From positions 69,234-133,233 of IMG/VR virus record IMGVR_UViG_3300042319_001830: a stretch of 64,000 nt of DNA. The stretch is one strand, 5' to 3'. A model generated the notes under the pieces. The model saw only the letters and a program-made list of their open reading frames with translations. It ran no database searches and was not told where the DNA came from. Origin of the DNA: a virus. The position numbers and the translations under genes are program-made. This document shows positions 25,732-37,634 of the stretch, piece after piece (position 1 is the first letter of the stretch; the number at the start of each line of letters is the position of its first letter).

Positions 25732-26274
25732 ATGAACGTTTTGGATCACTTAAAGAACAGTTCCGTGGACGATATTAAGTCCTACTGTAAAAACAATTGT
25801 ATTGATGCTAGCGTTGCTATGATGCACGTTAATGGCGATTTTAATCTATCCACTTTAGTCCGTAATGCCAACTTCTTTGGCTTCAAGGAAGCAATGTATG
25901 TAGGCGGAAGCAAACAGTGGGATCGTCGTGGTACTGTTGGTACACATCATTATACCGATTTAAATCATCTTAAGACTGAAGAAGAATTCGTACAGTATGT
26001 AAATGATAATGGTTATACACTACTCGCTGTAGAAAACAATATTCCCAAGTATAGTGATAAAACTGTTTCCATATTTAATCACTGGGTATTCAGTGGTGTA
26101 GATAAGCCAATGTTTGTATTTGGCGAAGAAAAGAGCGGATTGAGTGATTACATTCTTGACAATGCTGAAACTGTCATCACTATTCCAGCATATGGTAGTG
26201 TACGATCACTTAACGTGGGTACCACTAGCGGAATTGTAATGGGATTTTATCGCAACTATATTGATAACAATTAA
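25732..26274 (+). CDS. SpoU/TrmH-family (SPOUT) RNA 2'-O-methyltransferase
   Basis: FNLSTLVRNANFFG, FVFGEEKSGL and IPAYGSVRSLNV motifs. Confidence 0.88.
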   Translation: MNVLDHLKNSSVDDIKSYCKNNCIDASVAMMHVNGDFNLSTLVRNANFFGFKEAMYVGGSKQWDRRGTVGTHHYTDLNHLKTEEEFVQYVNDNGYTLLAVENNIPKYSDKTVSIFNHWVFSGVDKPMFVFGEEKSGLSDYILDNAETVITIPAYGSVRSLNVGTTSGIVMGFYRNYIDNN

Positions 26275-29357: not shown

Positions 29358-29432
29358 GGTCCATTCGTCTATCGGTTAGGACGCTGCCCTTTCAAGGCGG
29401 AGAGAGGAGTTCGATTCTCCTATGGACTACCA
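29358..29432 (+). tRNA. tRNA-Glu(UUC)
   Basis: Cloverleaf, CTGCC-CTTTCAA-GGCGG, CCA. Confidence 0.93.
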
Positions 29433-29443
29433 TTTTATGTTTG

Positions 29444-29596
29444 TCCGTTGCTTAAAAGAAACGGAATGGTGGAGGGTACATAACCAAAATACCCCTAGAG
29501 TTGGAAGTTCTCTTAAAAAACTTCTTGGTTGCGGGGTTAGCAAATGGTATACTTTGTTTGTTGGGTGGATAAAGTATTCAATAATTACACCCAACA
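29444..29596 (+). ncRNA. Candidate structured ncRNA C (hairpin chain)
   Basis: Five consecutive hairpins with possible pseudoknots, between tRNA genes. Confidence 0.45.
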
Positions 29597-29627: not shown

Positions 29628-29702
29628 AGCTGGCGGCAGGTTATTATTTGACGATGGCTCATAACCATTGGTAACTAAGTGAAATTCTTAGGCGAGCGAC
29701 CA
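29628..29702 (+). tRNA. Atypical tRNA-like RNA, anticodon CAU
   Basis: CGATGG-CTCATAA-CCATTG; T-arm CTAAG-TGAAATT-CTTAG; two acceptor mismatches; ACCA end. Confidence 0.6.
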
Positions 29703-29709
29703 TTTCAGT

Positions 29710-29781
29710 GGCTGGGGTTTCAGCAAACGACGAATCCTCATAAGGTTTGTTAAGTGGGGGCAGCACCCATACCAGCTACCA
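29710..29781 (+). tRNA. Atypical tRNA-like RNA, anticodon CAU
   Basis: GGCTGG/CCAGCT acceptor; mini D-arm GTTT-CAGC-AAAC; T-arm GTGGG-GGCAGCA-CCCAT; ACCA end. Confidence 0.6.
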
Positions 29782-29805
29782 TTTTAGTTCTTTAACAAAA
29801 CAATT

Positions 29806-29889: not shown

Positions 29890-29983
29890 GGTTCCGTAGT
29901 TTAACGGTAGAACGCAACGCTTATAACGTTGATAAGCTCTAGATTTGAGCACGGTCTCGGTTCGAATCCGGGCGGAACCACCA
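29890..29983 (+). tRNA. tRNA-Ile(UAU) with long variable arm
   Basis: GGTTCCG/CGGAACC; CAACG-CTTATAA-CGTTG; variable hairpin GCTC-TAGATTT-GAGC; CCA. Confidence 0.85.
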
Positions 29984-30058: not shown

Positions 30059-30736
30059 ATGAAACCATATGTCTACAAGATAACATCAAAAAATAAAGAA
30101 TATTATTTCGGGGTAAGATGGGGATATATATCAACTCCACAACAAGACTTGTGGAAAGATTATTTTACTTCATCTACATTAGTTCACGAATTAATCCAGA
30201 AAAATGGAAAAGAATATTTTGATGCTGAAATTTTATTTCTTTTTGATTCAAAAGAAGATGCTCTTAATAAAGAAATAGATTTGATAAAATCATCAATGAA
30301 AGATGAAAAATGTCTAAACAGAGCGTGTGGTAAATGTACAATATGGGATGACAATCTTAAAAAAAGAATGACGGAAAATATTAAGAAATTTTACAAAGAA
30401 AATAAAGATATATTAAAAAAATTAAGTGATGCTAAAAAAGGAGATAAAAATCCTAATTTTGGATGTCCGCCGTGGAGAAATGGTTTAGGTCACAAAAAAT
30501 CTTGGGTAAAAGCAATTGATATTTATAATGATTATGTTGTAGAAAACTGGCCTATTTTTGGTAAAAACAAAAAGTCTTACGGAAGAGTCTTCCTAACTAA
30601 GAGATATGGCATAGTTACAGGAACAGCAAGAAAATTGTTGATTTTATTGCAAAATGGTTGGAGTCCATATCAAGATAAAGATTTTCAAGAATTTTTGAAA
30701 AGTCAGTTGACTTCAGAAGAAAATGTGGTAAGATAA
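30059..30736 (+). mobile_element. GIY-YIG (seg-like) homing endonuclease
   Basis: YVYKIT....YYFGVR...YFTSS...E...LN; NUMOD3-like KKLSDAKKGDKNPNFG; inserted in the tRNA array. Confidence 0.82.
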
Positions 30737-30776: not shown

Positions 30777-30864
30777 GGGCAAGTGGCGAAATTGGCGAAA
30801 CGCAAGGGACTTAAAATCCCTTACTTAAGAAACGTTGTGGGTTCGAATCCCACCTTGCCTACCA
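30777..30864 (+). tRNA. tRNA-Leu(UAA)
   Basis: AGGGA-CTTAAAA-TCCCT, long variable region, CCA. Confidence 0.92.
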
Positions 30865-30879
30865 TTTTTTGAATTTAAT

Positions 30880-30952
30880 GCGGGTCAGGTGTAAAGAGAG
30901 CACGTTAGTCTACCAGACTAAAAGGCGAAATGCAAAGTTCGGACCCGCTCCA
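30880..30952 (+). tRNA. Atypical tRNA-Gly(ACC)
   Basis: GCGGGTC/GACCCGC, U73, CCA; TTAGT-CTACCAG-ACTAA; degenerate T-arm. Confidence 0.7.
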
Positions 30953-30960
30953 ATTTTAAT

Positions 30961-31036
30961 GCGATATTAGTGTCTATGAGGAGCACGGTGGGCCTTCCAG
31001 TCCACAAGGCCGGTGCAAGTCCGAGATATCGCTCCA
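30961..31036 (+). tRNA. Atypical tRNA-Gly(UCC)
   Basis: GCGATAT/ATATCGC, U73, CCA; anticodon loop is 6 or 8 nt rather than 7; T-loop TGCAAGT. Confidence 0.65.
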
Positions 31037-31045
31037 GTTTTACTT

Positions 31046-31121
31046 GGGTCAATAGCTCAATGGTTAGAGCGTAGAACTCATAATTCTTTGGTTACCGGTT
31101 CAAGTCCGGTTTGACCCACCA
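31046..31121 (+). tRNA. tRNA with CAU anticodon (Ile2/lysidine-type or elongator Met)
   Basis: Canonical cloverleaf GGGTCAA/TTGACCC; loop CTCATAA; CCA. Confidence 0.9.
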
Positions 31122-31475: not shown

Positions 31476-32180
31476 ATGATTAATATAAAAAGCATCAATG
31501 TTTCTTCTTATAAAGAGGAATTTATTAAAAACAGGCGGATTGTAATAGATAATTTTTTAACTGAGGAGTGGGCGGACAAGTTGTATAAGTATTATACGAC
31601 TGAGATGGGCAAAGAATATTGGTCTGCTACATATATGCCTTCGCTTAGGTATGAGGGTGATTGGGAGTGGTGGCAGAATATTTCTGGTAACAGATATGTT
31701 ATGGAGCAGGCGTATCAGCATGCTTGTAATGCTAGAGACAACAATTTGTTTAGTTATTTTTTCTATAAAACGATGCCTAGTATTATGGAGAAGGCTAAGT
31801 CTACTGTTTATGAAGAAACGATGGCATTTTTTAACGGTAAAGAAATGGTTGATTTTATGAATAGTGTAACTGATTTGGATATTACGATAGGAGACAAAAC
31901 GTTTGTTAGTCGTTATGCTGAAAACTGTTTTTTGAGTAATCATACAGATGATGTAAATGGTAAATTGGCGTTTGTGTGTCATTTGACCAAAGATTGGAAT
32001 CCTGATTTTGGTGGATTGTATTTGGATTTGAGAGACAAAAGCAATATTAAGGCGATTAACCCATCTTTTAATAAATTAGTAATATTTGAAGTGACGGCTG
32101 GAGTTGCGCCTCATAGTGTGACACAGATTGTTAATAATTCAAACAAAGAAAGAATCAGTGTATCTGGTTGGTATAATTAA
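31476..32180 (+). CDS. 2OG-Fe(II) oxygenase (prolyl-hydroxylase-like)
   Basis: IDNFL, HTD, GGLY, P.FN.LV.F, HSV and R.SVSGW motifs. Confidence 0.85.
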   Translation: MINIKSINVSSYKEEFIKNRRIVIDNFLTEEWADKLYKYYTTEMGKEYWSATYMPSLRYEGDWEWWQNISGNRYVMEQAYQHACNARDNNLFSYFFYKTMPSIMEKAKSTVYEETMAFFNGKEMVDFMNSVTDLDITIGDKTFVSRYAENCFLSNHTDDVNGKLAFVCHLTKDWNPDFGGLYLDLRDKSNIKAINPSFNKLVIFEVTAGVAPHSVTQIVNNSNKERISVSGWYN

Positions 32181-32193
32181 AAAATAAATTGTT

Positions 32194-32886
32194 ATGTATA
32201 TTCCTGTAGAGCATGAGCATATTCCACTTGTAGTAATTGATAATTTTCTTCCCAGAGATTATGTTACTAGATTATATGAAGATTTTATCAAGTTAAAGCC
32301 ACATTTTGGCATTCCACATTGGAGTGGTGGTTATAATGATGGTGCTGCTTATAATCCGGATGAACCGTTGAGTCCATTGTGTACTGGTCAAGATCTTTGG
32401 TTACCTTTTGAAACAGATCAAGTGGAAAAGAACAAAGATTTGGGTTTTTACGTATCAAATTTAAGCAAATATATTTTTCATCAGGGAATATTAGATTTTT
32501 TAACCCACGCTAAAAATGAACAATTGACTGCGTATGCTAAATATAGATACTTGTATAAGTATCATATCATTAACTATGGTGATGGTGGATATTATAATTG
32601 GCATAGGGATTTGGCGGTTAGTGGAATGACTTGGGATGGTGTAGATGTAAATAAACAAAACGCATTTACATTTGCGCTTACTTTGGTTAAAGATCCTAGT
32701 GTAATGAAAGGTGGAGAACAATACTTTATGTATAAAAATCATACATACAGATTGCCACTTACAAGCAATCAGTTAACAATCTTTCCATCCACAGTGTTTC
32801 ACGCTTGTAGTGAGATTACTGCTCCGAAGGATTTGCCTTGGGAAAACAAGAGATTTAATATGCAAGCTTGGCTATGTCATGGTTGA
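32194..32886 (+). CDS. 2OG-Fe(II) oxygenase
   Basis: IDNFL, YNWHRD, GGE, IFPS..FH and RF motifs. Confidence 0.85.
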   Translation: MYIPVEHEHIPLVVIDNFLPRDYVTRLYEDFIKLKPHFGIPHWSGGYNDGAAYNPDEPLSPLCTGQDLWLPFETDQVEKNKDLGFYVSNLSKYIFHQGILDFLTHAKNEQLTAYAKYRYLYKYHIINYGDGGYYNWHRDLAVSGMTWDGVDVNKQNAFTFALTLVKDPSVMKGGEQYFMYKNHTYRLPLTSNQLTIFPSTVFHACSEITAPKDLPWENKRFNMQAWLCHG

Positions 32887-34004: not shown

Positions 34005-35483
34005 ATGAAGCTATTTAGAGACTTACTTTTAGAGAATCCCGATACTGTATATTATAAGCGAAAGACATATAGTTATACTTCTCCAGCGAATAGATGTGCT
34101 TTTCTTGTATATAAAGATGAAAAGAGTGGTAAAAATGTTATATTTGGATATAGTGTGGTTAAAAAAGATTTTGTTTGTGATGATAGTGATGTATTAAAAG
34201 AACTCAAAGAATTGGAAAATAGTAAAGATGTTAAATATGATTCTAATAATAGAGATCAATTAGATTATTGGGCACAACAGGGTATTAAGAATTTAAAAAA
34301 TGGAAATAATGGTGGCGGTCATTTACAATTGGAGAATATTTTAAAAGGTATGGGTAGATTTGGTGCTTATGCTGATCCACTTTTGAAGGGTAGAATATTT
34401 GAAGTTGATGATGCTAAAGATGTGGTTGATGATTCTGATTTAAAGATTGAGAGTACAATACCCAGTGGCAAAGCTATTATTGTAACATTCTGGGATGCTA
34501 GAAGAGAAAAAATAATTAAATATAAAGATCAATATGAAAAAGTAATAGAGTTCAATGGATATGACCCCAAAGAATGTTTGTATGAACCAAGCCTCAAATT
34601 TTATACTTATACTGAATTTTATACCAATGAAGAACCCAAATCAATTGAATCTAAACCTGTTCAACCACTTGCTGGTACCAAAGCTTCAGATAGTTTCAGC
34701 GTGGGTGATAAAGTAAAAGTTAAAGGAATGAATGTTGATGGAGTGGTATTATCTGTCAGCGCAGCTAATACTATTAAATTAAAAGTAAACAAGTCAGATT
34801 TAAAAACTGTACCTGTTGGTTCTGAATTTGATTTTCCATATTATGGTTTACAACTTGATACCAGTCATACTACAAAATTCAAAGTGGGTGATAAAATAAG
34901 ATTAAAAGGTTTACCTGATATGACTGGTGACGTAACGCATGTTGATGGTAATCATATTACTATTGAAATAACAAGTTCAAAATATTCATTTGGTGCGTTT
35001 AGACAAGGAAGAGCTCTTAAAATACTAGCTTCTAGTGCGGAACTTGTTCAACCACAATCAGATGATACTGTGGCTGCTTCAGCCAAGCTTGATAAAGTGA
35101 TTGATGATAAGACTCAAGAGTTTGTTGAAAAACGAGGTAAATTACATTCAACTGGTGCTACATTTACTCCAGCGGAAAAACAAAATTTAGAAAATGAAGT
35201 GGATAGTTTAGAAATTGAAATCAAGATACTAAATGATTTATTGACTTCGGGTGAAAAGTATTATACAGACAATGTAAAAGACGTTGTAGCTACATCTGTA
35301 CAACGTAAGTTGGATGCTAAACAAAAAGAAAAACAAGATAGATATAGTTTGATAGCCCAAGCTGAAAAGCAATATGGTATGCCTATTGCACAAATAAGAC
35401 AAAAGTATAGAAATGTGCCATTGGATCAATTGGTTAAGAAAGAATCATTATATAAGAAACTATTGAAAGCATTACGAGGATGA
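34005..35483 (+). CDS. Modular protein with two KOW/SH3-like repeats and a coiled coil
   Basis: FSVGDKVKVKG...GVV and FKVGDKIRLKG...GDV; N-terminal MKLFRDLLLE. Confidence 0.55.
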   Translation: MKLFRDLLLENPDTVYYKRKTYSYTSPANRCAFLVYKDEKSGKNVIFGYSVVKKDFVCDDSDVLKELKELENSKDVKYDSNNRDQLDYWAQQGIKNLKNGNNGGGHLQLENILKGMGRFGAYADPLLKGRIFEVDDAKDVVDDSDLKIESTIPSGKAIIVTFWDARREKIIKYKDQYEKVIEFNGYDPKECLYEPSLKFYTYTEFYTNEEPKSIESKPVQPLAGTKASDSFSVGDKVKVKGMNVDGVVLSVSAANTIKLKVNKSDLKTVPVGSEFDFPYYGLQLDTSHTTKFKVGDKIRLKGLPDMTGDVTHVDGNHITIEITSSKYSFGAFRQGRALKILASSAELVQPQSDDTVAASAKLDKVIDDKTQEFVEKRGKLHSTGATFTPAEKQNLENEVDSLEIEIKILNDLLTSGEKYYTDNVKDVVATSVQRKLDAKQKEKQDRYSLIAQAEKQYGMPIAQIRQKYRNVPLDQLVKKESLYKKLLKALRG

Positions 35484-36496
35484 ATACAAAGAAACTTAGA
35501 ATTTTTGATTTTGATGATACGCTTTTTGAAACAGAAGCTAAAGTTATTATTACTTCAGCCAATAATACTAGTAGACAAATTACCCCGGCTGAATATGCTG
35601 TATATGAACCATTGCCAGGTGATAAGTTTGATTTTAGTCAATTTAATGCTATTATTAATCCTACATTGATTCGTTCAATTGCTAAGCGATTTTATAAAAT
35701 AGTTACATCTACGGATGGTGGTCGTAAGAGTGTGATATTGACGGCTAGGGGATCTGAAGCAGCACCACACATAAAAGATATAATTAGAAAGTACTTTAGA
35801 GTAAACATTGAGGTGGTTACATTGGGCACTGGTGATCCTATGGCCAAAGCTAATTGGATATTGAACAAGATACAAAATGAGGGTTACAATGATATATTCT
35901 TTGTGGATGATAGCAGCAAGAATATATTGGCTACTTATAGAACTATTAGTAACTTGCCTATTAAGTATAAGTTAGTTGATATTACTACCCCAAGAAAATA
36001 TGAGGGTAACAATCTTCCAACTACTAATAGTTTAACTGAGATGTTAAAGAATGTGGTTGATAAAGAAAGAATTAAGAAGGCTTATAAGTATTTTGTGAAT
36101 AAGTTGAATCTACCCAGTGGAAAAATTAAATTAGAATTTGGTAGTTTAGATGGCGATGTACAGGGTAAAGTAAAAGTTGAGGGAGATAAAAATCCATATA
36201 AAATAAAAAGTTATGTGGTTATAATGCGCACAAACAGTCCACATAGTAGTGATGATCAGATCAAGACTTTGGCGCACGAGTTGCATCATATTAGACAGGT
36301 GGAGGATGGTAGATTGAATGTATTTGAAAATAGTTGGGATGGTAAAGTTTATCCTAAATATGACGACGATGATCCCAAAGAAAGAATGTTGCCTTGGGAG
36401 ATTGATGCTCGAATGAATGCCGAGACATTGTATGTGGAATATAACAGATATGCTAGAGAAAAAGGTGCGACTACCAAGATTATAAAGATTAAATAA
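35480..36496 (+). CDS. HAD-family phosphatase fused to a zincin-like domain
   Basis: IFDFDDTLF, LTAR, K and FVDDS; then AHELHH..Q...PWEIDA. Confidence 0.75.
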   Translation: MNTKKLRIFDFDDTLFETEAKVIITSANNTSRQITPAEYAVYEPLPGDKFDFSQFNAIINPTLIRSIAKRFYKIVTSTDGGRKSVILTARGSEAAPHIKDIIRKYFRVNIEVVTLGTGDPMAKANWILNKIQNEGYNDIFFVDDSSKNILATYRTISNLPIKYKLVDITTPRKYEGNNLPTTNSLTEMLKNVVDKERIKKAYKYFVNKLNLPSGKIKLEFGSLDGDVQGKVKVEGDKNPYKIKSYVVIMRTNSPHSSDDQIKTLAHELHHIRQVEDGRLNVFENSWDGKVYPKYDDDDPKERMLPWEIDARMNAETLYVEYNRYAREKGATTKIIKIK

Positions 36497-36497
36497 T

Positions 36498-37634
36498 ATG
36501 TTAATCGATTCGCCACTTGTTAAAGATGGAGTAATGTCTGGATCCAGTGTATTTACTGGATCGGTAAATATAAGACCTAGTGATTTGACTATACAGTCAA
36601 ATGCTGTATATCTAACTTTAGATATTAATACAGGTAAAATAGGAAAATCAACCGATATATCAACAACTACTAGTGGTACATCTGGCGTATCTGGAACAGC
36701 GGGTACAGCAGGTACTAGTGCTACAGCCGGTACCAGTGGTTTGACTGGTTATCCTGGCAGTAGCGGTACAAGCGGTGCGGCAGGAACTATATTGTATACT
36801 GGTAGCACTTATCCTATTACGGCGAGTAGGGCAATTACAGCCAGTTATGCACTAAATGCAAATTCTGGTGGTGGTGTTCAGTTGTATACTGGTAGCACTT
36901 ATCCTATTACTGCCAGTTGGGCGGTAAGTGCTAGTTATGCGGTGTATGCGTTGAGTGGTGGTACCAAATTGTATACTGGTAGCATTTATCCTATAACATC
37001 CAGTTGGGGTATTACTGCTAGTTATGCTTTGAATAGTGGTAATAGTATAGCTGTATTATTTACGTCTTCATTTTTCAAAGGTGAATTATTATCTAAAATA
37101 ACTTGTTCTGCTTATTATTCATATTATCATTTAAGTACTGAAAACAATTTAAATATAAGATTGACTGGTAGTAATACTCCATCTGCTTTTTCTATTAGAT
37201 TGGTGAACAGTGGTAGTGCTAGTAACCGTGTACGATTATCTCCATATAATACTATTGAATGGGCTGGTGTTGCTAGTGGATTTGATAATACTGGGTCCAT
37301 ATTGATGGCGGGTAATCAGGAGTTATTCTTTTCATTTATTTTTTATAATAATGCTGGTATTGGCAGACCTGTAAGCAAGTCTATAGCATTTATCACTGAT
37401 TTAAAGACACCTGGTTTACAAAACAAAACTACAGCTCAAAATTTGTATATATTGGGAGATGGTTTATCAGGAATGGTATCTGGTAGTATAAATGACCCAA
37501 ATACATACATATTTACAGTTGATGGAGGTGGTACTGAACCATCTGTAGCTGGATTAAATAGCAAACCTTTTTGGGGTTGGATGCCAGTGTATGTGGAAGG
37601 ATATGGTAGAAAATTCTTACCTCTATATGAATAA
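36498..37634 (+). CDS. Virion fibre-related protein
   Basis: SGTSG linker and three LYTGS.YPIT.S.A.TASYAL repeats. Confidence 0.6.
   Translation: MLIDSPLVKDGVMSGSSVFTGSVNIRPSDLTIQSNAVYLTLDINTGKIGKSTDISTTTSGTSGVSGTAGTAGTSATAGTSGLTGYPGSSGTSGAAGTILYTGSTYPITASRAITASYALNANSGGGVQLYTGSTYPITASWAVSASYAVYALSGGTKLYTGSIYPITSSWGITASYALNSGNSIAVLFTSSFFKGELLSKITCSAYYSYYHLSTENNLNIRLTGSNTPSAFSIRLVNSGSASNRVRLSPYNTIEWAGVASGFDNTGSILMAGNQELFFSFIFYNNAGIGRPVSKSIAFITDLKTPGLQNKTTAQNLYILGDGLSGMVSGSINDPNTYIFTVDGGGTEPSVAGLNSKPFWGWMPVYVEGYGRKFLPLYE

Follow-up and report, generated by a model that had tools for sequence, protein, structure and literature searches.

The locus studied here raises the question of why a large lake-water phage carries a tRNA-Gly gene with an ACC anticodon, and whether its RNA serves the ribosome, another enzyme or both. 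The gene is 73 bases long and lies at 30880..30952 on the + strand of the window, by which is meant the whole stretch of 64,000 nucleotides of viral DNA that was analysed; it is termed the A-type, and its tandem paralogue, which starts nine bases 3′ of it, is termed the B-type. Sequence, fold, conservation and covariation identify the A-type as a non-canonical tRNA-Gly gene. The A-type is a real, functional tRNA-Gly-type gene with a genuine and conserved ACC anticodon, and ACC-type tRNA-Gly genes are physically linked to genes of the DruA family and, less often, of the Mom family across phages, which points to an enzyme partnership rather than to codon supply. The reading favoured here, tentatively and with doubt somewhat outweighing confidence, is that the A-type works together with a DruA/Mom-type enzyme, most likely as a private carrier of glycine; the RNA may carry glycine for such an enzyme alongside or instead of aiding the synthesis of the Gly-rich fibres encoded downstream.

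The acceptor stem of the A-type is paired at 7/7 base pairs (bp), beginning with G1-C72, C2-G71 and G3-C70, and the 3′ end consists of U73 and an encoded CCA followed by a run of T, as in the other RNA genes of the cluster. Positions 8 and 9, in a numbering that is our own assignment, are A and G. The D arm has a 4-bp stem and a 7-base loop without GG, the anticodon arm has a 5/5-bp stem and the 7-base loop CUACCAG (U33, A34, C35, C36 and A37), and the variable region has 4 bases. The T arm is 16 bases long, built from four Watson-Crick pairs and an A-G apposition around the loop core UGCAA, compared with 17 bases and UUCRA in the usual tRNA T arm. The canonical elbow is missing: the D loop lacks G18-G19, positions 53 and 61 are occupied by A and G instead of a G-C pair, and the T loop has 6 bases. 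The T-stem pairs 49-65, 50-64 and 51-63 are all Watson-Crick. The initial annotation had described a perfect anticodon stem and loop, CT-ACC-AG, and a D loop without GG, both of which are confirmed by reading the sequence; the T arm, described there as degenerate, is instead an invariant alternative hairpin in 7/7 distinct A-type copies.

In its cloverleaf (acceptor stem of 7 bp, D stem, anticodon stem of 5 bp) and in its 7-base anticodon loop with U33 and a purine at position 37, the A-type resembles an elongator tRNA. The identity set of bacterial glycyl-tRNA synthetase (GlyRS) comprises G1-C72, C2-G71, G3-C70, U73, C35 and C36, and all six elements are present. The identity pairs, U73, the CUACCAG loop and the conservation described below all bear out the earlier assignment of a tRNA-Gly with an ACC anticodon at this position. 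The predicted fold has a free energy of -24.2 kcal/mol (z = -3.14), and 0/200 shuffled sequences are as stable. The A-type is absent from the 6 tRNAs that ARAGORN lists in the window, and the Rfam tRNA model RF00005 (gathering score 29 bits) has no match at 30880-30952 even at E <= 10; the sole Rfam overlap, of sX4 with the 5′ end (15.8 bits, E 2.8), is at chance level. The A-type remains unusual in its short T arm, A8 and A34. The T arm, with its four pairs, A-G apposition and 6-base loop, lies outside the range of 174 distinct tRNAs called by ARAGORN in the loci fetched; A8 is non-specific, occurring in 13 of these 174.

Failure of two tRNA finders to call the A-type is consistent with an artefact or relic, in which A34 is a sequencing error or the gene a decaying pseudogene, and this explanation is hardly credible because conservation, covariation and the contigs of public sequencing runs speak against it. 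A scan of viral contigs with a pattern derived from A-type and B-type copies yielded 20 viral contigs, and the element is present in 20/20. A covariance model, R1, built from 13 distinct sequences, gave 35 matches, 18 of them distinct, in the window and the 20 loci. In these 18 family sequences 99.6% of the cells are paired and both-side, compensatory changes occur in 10/16 pairs, in an alignment that was fitted to R1 and so leans toward the model. Acceptor pairs 1-3, which belong to the Gly identity set, are invariant in the 18 sequences and pairs 4-7 covary freely, a pattern expected under selection for recognition by GlyRS. The ACC anticodon and its loop CUACCAG are invariant in all 7 distinct A-type copies, ACC is also found on the other, B-type backbone in L017, the relative in which the A-type is missing, and the ACC copies are distributed over 19 further contigs from different samples. 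Compared with its copy in G001, the one complete genome among the relatives analysed, the A-type is identical at 72/73 bases (99%), against 57-94% for the other RNAs of the cluster, and is the best conserved of them. The homing-endonuclease gene immediately 5′ of the cluster raises the possibility that gene conversion has helped to keep the copies so alike.

No letter but A occurs at position 34 (window position 30913) in the covering contigs, which come from lake-water runs, three of RNA libraries and one of DNA; this evidence comes from contigs, not raw reads, and two of the runs, X16 and X17, cover the stretch in part. Read support for the A had been proposed as a check on sequencing error, and the contigs of all four public runs read A, which, together with the conservation, shows the A to be real. 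Strain variants in the run contigs alter the two strands of the acceptor stem in concert. An RNA-library contig (X17 record 12) extends from the Leu gene through the A-type and the B-type to the Met gene, suggesting that the A-type is expressed and that a joint transcript of the four is possible; DNA carried over into the RNA library could also explain the contig. With regard to inosine at position 34, the RNA-library contigs read A, but they span several genes and are likely to represent precursors or DNA. A blastn search against cultured phages returned matches to ordinary tRNAs only, and a pattern scan of the genomes of 185,579 species gave 17 matches, about the number expected by chance in our own estimate, none of which R1 confirmed, and so gave no pointer to the host.

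The linkage to DruA and Mom was seen in three symmetric scans of viral contigs, for ACC, UCC and GCC, that differ solely in base 34, the UCC and GCC scans serving as the control. The counted loci are those numbered L201 upward, L001-L200 being excluded, the flanks are alike in size (~8-9 kb per locus), and all counts from these scans are counts among the matches listed. Sequences with an unpaired acceptor or anticodon stem were dropped (20/75 distinct sequences for ACC, 7/130 for UCC and 9/108 for GCC). The DruA profile matches in the flanks of 33/90 ACC loci, compared with 6/128 UCC and 4/111 GCC loci (pooled 10/239; odds ratio 13, Fisher p = 4e-13), and the Mom profile in those of 5/90 ACC, 3/128 UCC and 0/111 GCC loci. 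All DruA open reading frames (ORFs) at ACC loci, 34/34, lie on the strand of the tRNA; the gap between the two is <=500 bases in 15 cases and <=2 kb in 21. Its median is 562 bases, some pairs stand only 8-53 bases apart, and at least 10 different arrangements are found. Where a DruA ORF has a same-strand Gly tRNA with a 7-base loop within 2 kb (n = 25), the tRNA has A34 in 21 cases and U34 in 4. The loop of the window's RNA, CUACCAG, occurs in 7 of the DruA-adjacent tRNAs, and 8/8 neighbouring ORFs tested pass the Pfam cut-off for DruA (PF14236). At locus L205, the 3′ part of a Mom-family ORF (1649-2371, E = 1.4e-44) contains a complete same-strand tRNA-Gly(ACC) at 2257-2330. An arrangement of Mom ORF and tRNA-Gly(ACC) like that of L205 was also noted at L286.

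The tRNAs of the three scans differ in the elbow as well. Non-canonical elbows occur in 37/55 ACC sequences, compared with 14/123 UCC and 11/99 GCC sequences, and canonical ones in 18/55, 109/123 and 88/99, respectively (p ~1e-13). A literature search, with supplements outside its scope, turned up neither a tRNA-Gly(ACC) encoded by a phage nor a link between such a gene and DruA or Mom.

A carrier role would have its precedent in the Mom protein of phage Mu, which, according to the accessible part of the report, transfers glycine from Gly-tRNAGly onto adenine in double-stranded DNA (PMC13219725; Silva et al., Nat Commun 2026). The DruA and Mom families both have the GNAT acyltransferase fold. 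Mom proteins of the phage lineage studied here match a profile of the Mu Mom structure 8bv8 (E = 1.2e-15), and a confident model of DruA with a predicted local distance difference test score (pLDDT) of 84.4 has a GNAT fold, for which Mu Mom 8bv8 is the top structural match (Z 9.9, root-mean-square deviation 3.9 Å, 167 residues aligned). A first, poor model of DruA (pLDDT 63.7) gave weak matches to MYST-type GNAT acetyltransferases. In the favoured reading, the A-type would be transcribed with the tRNA operon and processed, host GlyRS would charge it with glycine, and the charged RNA would act as the phage's own activated-glycine carrier for a DruA/Mom-type enzyme, which the window phage's own genome would encode. 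The ACC anticodon and the rebuilt body could mark the A-type as the enzyme's own RNA, and some ribosomal reading of GGU alongside the carrier role would be possible.

The same linkage would also be expected if the RNA were the target of the enzyme and not its donor. A DruA-type enzyme would then modify the A-type, for example by acylating A34 or a different base, as TmcA acetylates C34 of tRNA-Met, and the modified tRNA would decode Gly codons with an altered range or accuracy. The linkage is specific to the first base of the anticodon, with A34 in 21 of the 25 DruA-adjacent Gly tRNAs, as would be expected if that base were recognised or modified. The GNAT fold of the DruA model agrees with such a role, as do two points in the available text of the Mom paper, namely that Mom-type chemistry is directed at the N6 of adenine and that TmcA, discussed there, is a GNAT enzyme acting on tRNA position 34 (PMC13219725). 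Bona fide Mom genes, with their known donor chemistry, also associate with ACC tRNAs, and this argues against the target role, as does the fact that the chemistry of DruA is not known; the plain A at position 34 in RNA-library contigs carries little weight, since these are probably precursors or DNA. On these grounds modification of the A-type is judged improbable.

A broader reading is that ACC tRNA-Gly genes and genes of DruA-family GNAT proteins form a widespread two-gene module of phages, of which the A-type is an unlinked member. In such a module, a phage-borne carrier of glycine, with A34 and in many cases a rebuilt elbow as its marks, would feed a nucleic-acid-modifying, aminoacyl-tRNA-dependent transferase. 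This is possible, though it cannot be counted on. If it is true, DruA would be a tRNA-dependent acyltransferase, and the module supplies a testable hypothesis for DruA function. Phages keep tRNA-Gly(ACC), which nearly all cellular genomes avoid, preferentially with a rebuilt elbow beside DruA and Mom, suggesting a second testable hypothesis, that a private Gly-tRNA would let large phages avert competition between translation and tRNA-dependent DNA modification.

The main alternative outside enzyme linkage is that the A-type is a plain decoder, that is, an elongator tRNA-Gly with an odd but workable elbow that reads GGU through an A34-U Watson-Crick pair, and perhaps other GGN codons weakly, and provides extra capacity for the commonest Gly codon in the Gly-rich late genes. 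In the window (80 ORFs, 20,199 codons), Gly accounts for 9.3% of codons and GGT for 4.6% of all codons, and the shares among Gly codons are 50% for GGT, 29% for GGA, 17% for GGC and 4% for GGG. Gly rises to 14% of codons within 36.5-64 kb and to 17% and 33% in single genes, and in-frame AGT-GGT pairs reach 41 per gene. The fibre genes had initially been called GGT-saturated; the counts confirm GGT as the commonest Gly codon, but with a share of only 50% there is no saturation. GGT (n = 938) is accompanied by a similar number of AGT codons (n = 839), and the cluster has no other tRNA with A34 or G34 for a U-ending codon, which speaks against dedication to the fibres.

Several properties of the A-type suit a decoder. 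It has the 7-base loop, U33 and A37 together with a perfect anticodon stem and lower T stem, it sits in a tRNA operon that serves the favoured codons AGA, AAA, GAA, AUA and UUA, and in every relative the leading member of the Gly-like tandem retains 7 bases in its loop, against 6 or 8 in the second. Consistently, ACC re-emerges on the other backbone in L017, 18/55 phage ACC tRNA-Gly sequences are fully canonical, and reporter performance of an A34-U3 pair at GGU is near that of G34-U3 according to the part of the study available (PMC6720975). The same text states that tRNA-Gly(ACC) is avoided by nearly all organisms, which argues against a decoding role, and codon supply leaves unexplained why ACC genes, and not UCC or GCC genes, adjoin DruA and Mom. 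The T arm, beyond the range of the ARAGORN tRNAs, is a further difficulty. A last point against it is that GGT makes up 58% of 149 Gly codons in L018, where ACC is absent from this position; the GGT share is 40-58% in the flanks of all relatives with at least 50 Gly codons, L018 included. Codon coadaptation was therefore rejected as uninformative, the GGT share being similar even where ACC is missing.

Canonical tRNA-Gly genes are found in 0/20 of the relatives' flanks. The complete genome of G001 (295,831 bp), however, has a second cluster of ~22 tRNA genes that includes canonical tRNA-Gly(GCC) and tRNA-Gly(UCC) and a transfer-messenger RNA (tmRNA), so that GGU is already served in this relative. 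In their first six acceptor pairs the canonical Gly tRNAs of G001 agree with the A-type, which makes the A-type an extra, rebuilt copy, and homologues of tRNA-Gly(GCC) are present in G008 and G009. Of the earlier proposal of a dedicated tRNA for Gly-rich fibres, a real ACC tRNA with a decoding-fit loop and GGT as the top Gly codon stand; the canonical Gly tRNAs and the linkage to DruA and Mom tell against the dedication. Plain decoding by the A-type as its sole role is thus considered unlikely on balance, if far from negligible, and decoding becomes more likely if the RNA serves two uses. G001 has other features of note: the tmRNA lies at L177:383-767, and a tRNA-like gene with an 8-base loop at L177:11002-11077 is assigned the four-base anticodon CUCU by ARAGORN and has the T loop UGAAAAU. 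Another tRNA with A34, a tRNA-Leu with an AAG anticodon, is encoded at L174:2077-2159 in the Mom-bearing phage G013.

The unusual elbow itself turned out to be shared with ordinary phage tRNAs. Among the 174 distinct ARAGORN tRNAs, 6 have G55, of which 5/6 lack GG in the D loop, and 161 have U55, of which 6/161 lack it (p = 2.6e-6). Orthologous tRNA-Leu(CAA) genes (L008:5677-5760 and L016:3417-3500 compared with L006:4416-4499, L178:2862-2945 and L010:7585-7668) and tRNA-Glu(UUC) genes (L017:8218-8292 compared with window 29358-29432) switch elbows, a change of GG to AG in the D loop being coupled with a change of UUC to UGC in the T loop, and the Cys, Tyr and Asn tRNAs of G001 have the same G55/no-GG variant. 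From the sequences, this switch looks like covariation of the tertiary pair 18-55 in our numbering. The G55/no-GG elbow is therefore no marker of a non-decoding tRNA, and its exchange with the canonical elbow in orthologous Leu and Glu tRNAs is in line with a decoding A-type. The idea that G55 marks a non-proteogenic tRNA, as in Staphylococcus, was dropped because ordinary phage tRNAs share and swap this elbow. More generally, absence of T-psi-C is an unsafe criterion for calling a tRNA non-decoding, and phage tRNAs are undercounted by tRNA finders. As a separate observation, some T loops start with A and have T at the fifth place (ATCGTTA, AGCGTTA and AGCGTAA), positions 54 and 58 being apparently swapped, in the tRNAs at L017:8451-8525 (Lys), L036:2641-2733 (Ile) and L174:477-548 (Gly GCC).

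The genes that the favoured carrier role calls for do occur in relatives of this phage. In addition to the A-type, G001 carries a DruA gene and two Mom genes (E = 1e-50 and 3e-43), and Mom lies ~5 kb from DruA in each of G008, G009 and G010. The regions with Mom and DruA are at 48.0-54.6 kb in G001, 30.6-39.0 kb in G008, 20.9-30.2 kb in G009 and 11.6-21.0 kb in G010, and the spacing of ~5 kb is noted in all four relatives. By eye, a 407-aa ORF of G001 just upstream of the other Mom gene (L021:204-1427) is a putative adenine methyltransferase. G002 has DruA and, directly upstream of tRNA-Leu and its Gly-like pair, a 241-aa DruA/Mom-like ORF; the 241-aa ORF matches both profiles weakly (E = 0.005 and 0.05) and shares with an HNH-like ORF the slot that corresponds to 30059-30736 of the window. 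Among the fragments, no Mom match was found in G003 and G026-G030 and no DruA match in G003, G026-G030 having been searched for Mom only. In 15 Mom-bearing records R1 matches in 7, one match being a false positive on tRNA-Phe, and in two of the records an additional R1 match is the canonical Gly(UCC); R1 has no match in the DruA-bearing fragments G008 and G009.

A number of observations weigh against a private glycine carrier. The first group concerns gene order, since the enzyme genes are not adjacent to the RNA in this lineage. Within ~2 kb of the ACC tRNA of the window there is no same-strand DruA or Mom gene, the neighbouring ORF being a homing endonuclease. With Mom and DruA proteins as queries, tblastn gave no match anywhere in the window or in 19/20 of the relatives' flanks, the exception being L017, where a Pfam DruA match of 24.6 bits stays below the cut-off of 27. 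R1 matches occur within 10 kb of 0/80 Mom loci (1.25 Mb), and adjacency to Mom in the A-type family was rejected on this count. In Mom-bearing genomes that are at least 90% complete, a non-canonical Gly-like RNA is detected by R1 in 4/8. G001 is moderately distant, 20 kb of the window giving six short blastn pieces of 68-93% identity, so that the phage of the window may differ from it. The second group concerns the enzymes. The Z score of Mom against the DruA model is within 1 unit of those of generic GNAT proteins and hence tied with them, Foldseek gave no match to the model at E <= 0.001, and a comparison of DruA and Mom profiles by hhalign found no similarity (probabilities 0.1% and 0.4%). 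A phmmer search against PDB for DruA-Mom homology likewise gave nothing, and homology of the two by sequence was given up as unsupported by either program. To our knowledge, DruA is the uncharacterised first gene of type I Druantia defence, with no known chemistry. The third group concerns the RNA and the sampling: the anticodon arm is fully fit for decoding, with Watson-Crick pairs at 49-65, 50-64 and 51-63 of the T stem; GGT is the top Gly codon; the interchange of elbows makes the odd build of the A-type weak evidence against ribosomal use; and the counted loci are phylogenetically non-independent and drawn from among the matches listed. Finally, Mu Mom accepts all three isoacceptors of E. 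coli and rejects Gly-tRNAAla, as stated in the text available (PMC13219725), and a private donor is therefore not required.

The surroundings of the A-type bear on one more explanation. The B-type, at 30961..31036 on the + strand (R1 80.2 bits), has the Gly identity set, a UCC anticodon and U73-CCA. Its UCC lies in an 8-base loop, or a 6-base loop if a C-G pair closes, its T loop is UGCAAGT, and its T-stem positions 49-65 and 50-64 are mismatches; its fold is no better than those of shuffled sequences (z = 0.06), and neither ARAGORN nor Rfam calls it. In the relatives the B-type anticodon loop has 6, 7 or 8 bases and the T loop up to 13, and a 7-base anticodon loop is found only where the B backbone holds the first tandem place (L017 and L018). 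The remaining genes of the run, all on the + strand, are ordinary ones: the canonical tRNA-Leu(UAA) at 30777..30864, 15 bases upstream of the A-type, is called by ARAGORN and Rfam, is found at the same position in the relatives where called and is 94% identical between the window and G001, and the canonical tRNA-Met(CAU) at 31046..31121 (ARAGORN; Rfam, 71.9 bits) is the last RNA gene of the series. The slot 5′ of the Leu gene and the Gly-like pair is taken by the homing-endonuclease gene at 30059..30736 (+; phrog_314, E = 9e-24), whose product may have a GIY-YIG-like start, a label that comes from our own reading of the sequence. The 20 relatives' flanks share a tRNA set of Arg UCU, Lys, Glu, Met, Ile UAU, Leu CAA and Leu UAA.

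Several abnormal tRNA-like RNAs in this cluster, namely the B-type and RNAs with CAU loops at 29630-29783, would be understandable if the A-type were a decoy or sponge, an abundant and chargeable look-alike that shields the translating pool by drawing off a host factor directed against tRNA-Gly, for instance a tRNA nuclease or a GNAT toxin that works by acetylating Gly-tRNAGly. The polynucleotide-kinase-like ORF at 35480-36496 (phrog_415, E = 9e-6) fits such a conflict, and GNAT toxins that act on charged tRNA are among those listed in the accessible text of the Mom paper (PMC13219725). A decoy leaves the link of ACC to DruA and Mom and the conserved, decoding-grade anticodon loop unexplained, and no host is known and no toxin or nuclease has been identified; this explanation is very improbable.

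Other features of the region were noted in passing. The RNAs with CAU loops at 29630-29783 and a similar one at L002:7632-7703 (R1 score 15 bits) have non-canonical T loops and are uncalled by ARAGORN. At 29890-29983 of the window lies a tRNA gene with the anticodon UAU, A73 and a class-II type variable arm of 21 bases; it measures 92-94 bases, is conserved across the lineage and is present once or twice in the flanks of most of the 20 relatives. A wcaG RNA motif matches between tRNA genes at 29435-29539 (33 bits against a gathering score of 42, E ~1e-3). A stand-alone gene for a SpoU-type RNA methylase (25732-26274, Pfam E = 2.6e-22) lies ~2.8 kb upstream of the tRNA cluster, and its product and that of the downstream ORF at 35480-36496, whose resemblance to polynucleotide kinase is in the N-terminus, may act on tRNA. 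On the 3′ side of the RNA cluster, two genes for 2-oxoglutarate (2OG)-Fe(II) oxygenases are followed, further on, by that for a collagen-repeat protein (31476-32886 and 36498-37634 for these genes), and the oxygenases could hydroxylate collagen-like fibres.

Among known systems, the closest to the proposed glycine carrier is Mu Mom (Pfam PF25680, PDB 8bv8), in which, likewise in a phage setting, a GNAT-fold enzyme draws glycine from charged tRNA-Gly. True Mom homologues occur in this phage's relatives, tRNA-Gly(ACC) lies beside or inside Mom genes in other phages, and the acceptor end that Mom is thought to recognise (the Gly identity pairs, U73 and CCA) is invariant in the A-type family. The two differ in that Mu is reported to encode no tRNA and to draw on every isoacceptor of its host (PMC13219725), whereas here the phage would supply a rebuilt tRNA with a special anticodon; moreover, the commoner neighbour of ACC tRNAs is DruA, and neither gene is in the window.

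A second likeness is to the non-proteogenic (NP) tRNA-Gly of Staphylococcus aureus and S. epidermidis, NP1-NP3, which the accessible text describes as glycine donors for FmhB, FemA and FemB (PMC7826273). Like the A-type, they are Gly-specific, have an altered T loop, in which TTC is replaced by TGC or TGT (TGC in the A-type, TGT in the relative L005), and coexist with canonical isoacceptors, and in both cases a separate, off-ribosome pool of Gly-tRNA is proposed. The staphylococcal RNAs, according to the same text, have UCC, are chromosomal and serve the cell-wall Fem enzymes, whereas the A-type has ACC; no Fem family is among the Pfam matches to the window ORFs, in scans that covered part of the ORFs. 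In the phages, unlike in the staphylococcal case, G55 is also found in ordinary Leu, Glu, Cys, Tyr and Asn tRNAs. Non-proteogenic tRNAs of staphylococci are further characterised by weak EF-Tu binding and a lack of ribosome binding; the T-stem pairs expected to contact EF-Tu (49-65, 50-64, 51-63) form Watson-Crick pairs in the A-type and are mismatched in the B-type. The likeness, drawn from descriptions, is probably convergent.

Canonical tRNA-Gly(GCC) and tRNA-Gly(UCC) share with the A-type the identity set, the geometry of the 7-base loop and, in G001, the first six acceptor pairs, and the A-type differs from them by A34, A8, the absence of G18-G19, G55, the 16-base T arm and its non-recognition by RF00005 and ARAGORN. 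Natural or engineered tRNAs with an unmodified A34 resemble it in having an A-first anticodon for a four-codon box, in which U is expected to be read and other bases more weakly; the available text of these studies deals with decoding only and describes neither a link to acyltransferase genes nor a rebuilt body (PMC11066159, PMC6720975). With its Gly body, its ACC anticodon and the 7-base loop CUACCAG, the A-type matches, as an RNA, the class of phage ACC tRNAs that are associated with DruA and Mom, but in the window it lacks their nearby enzyme gene.

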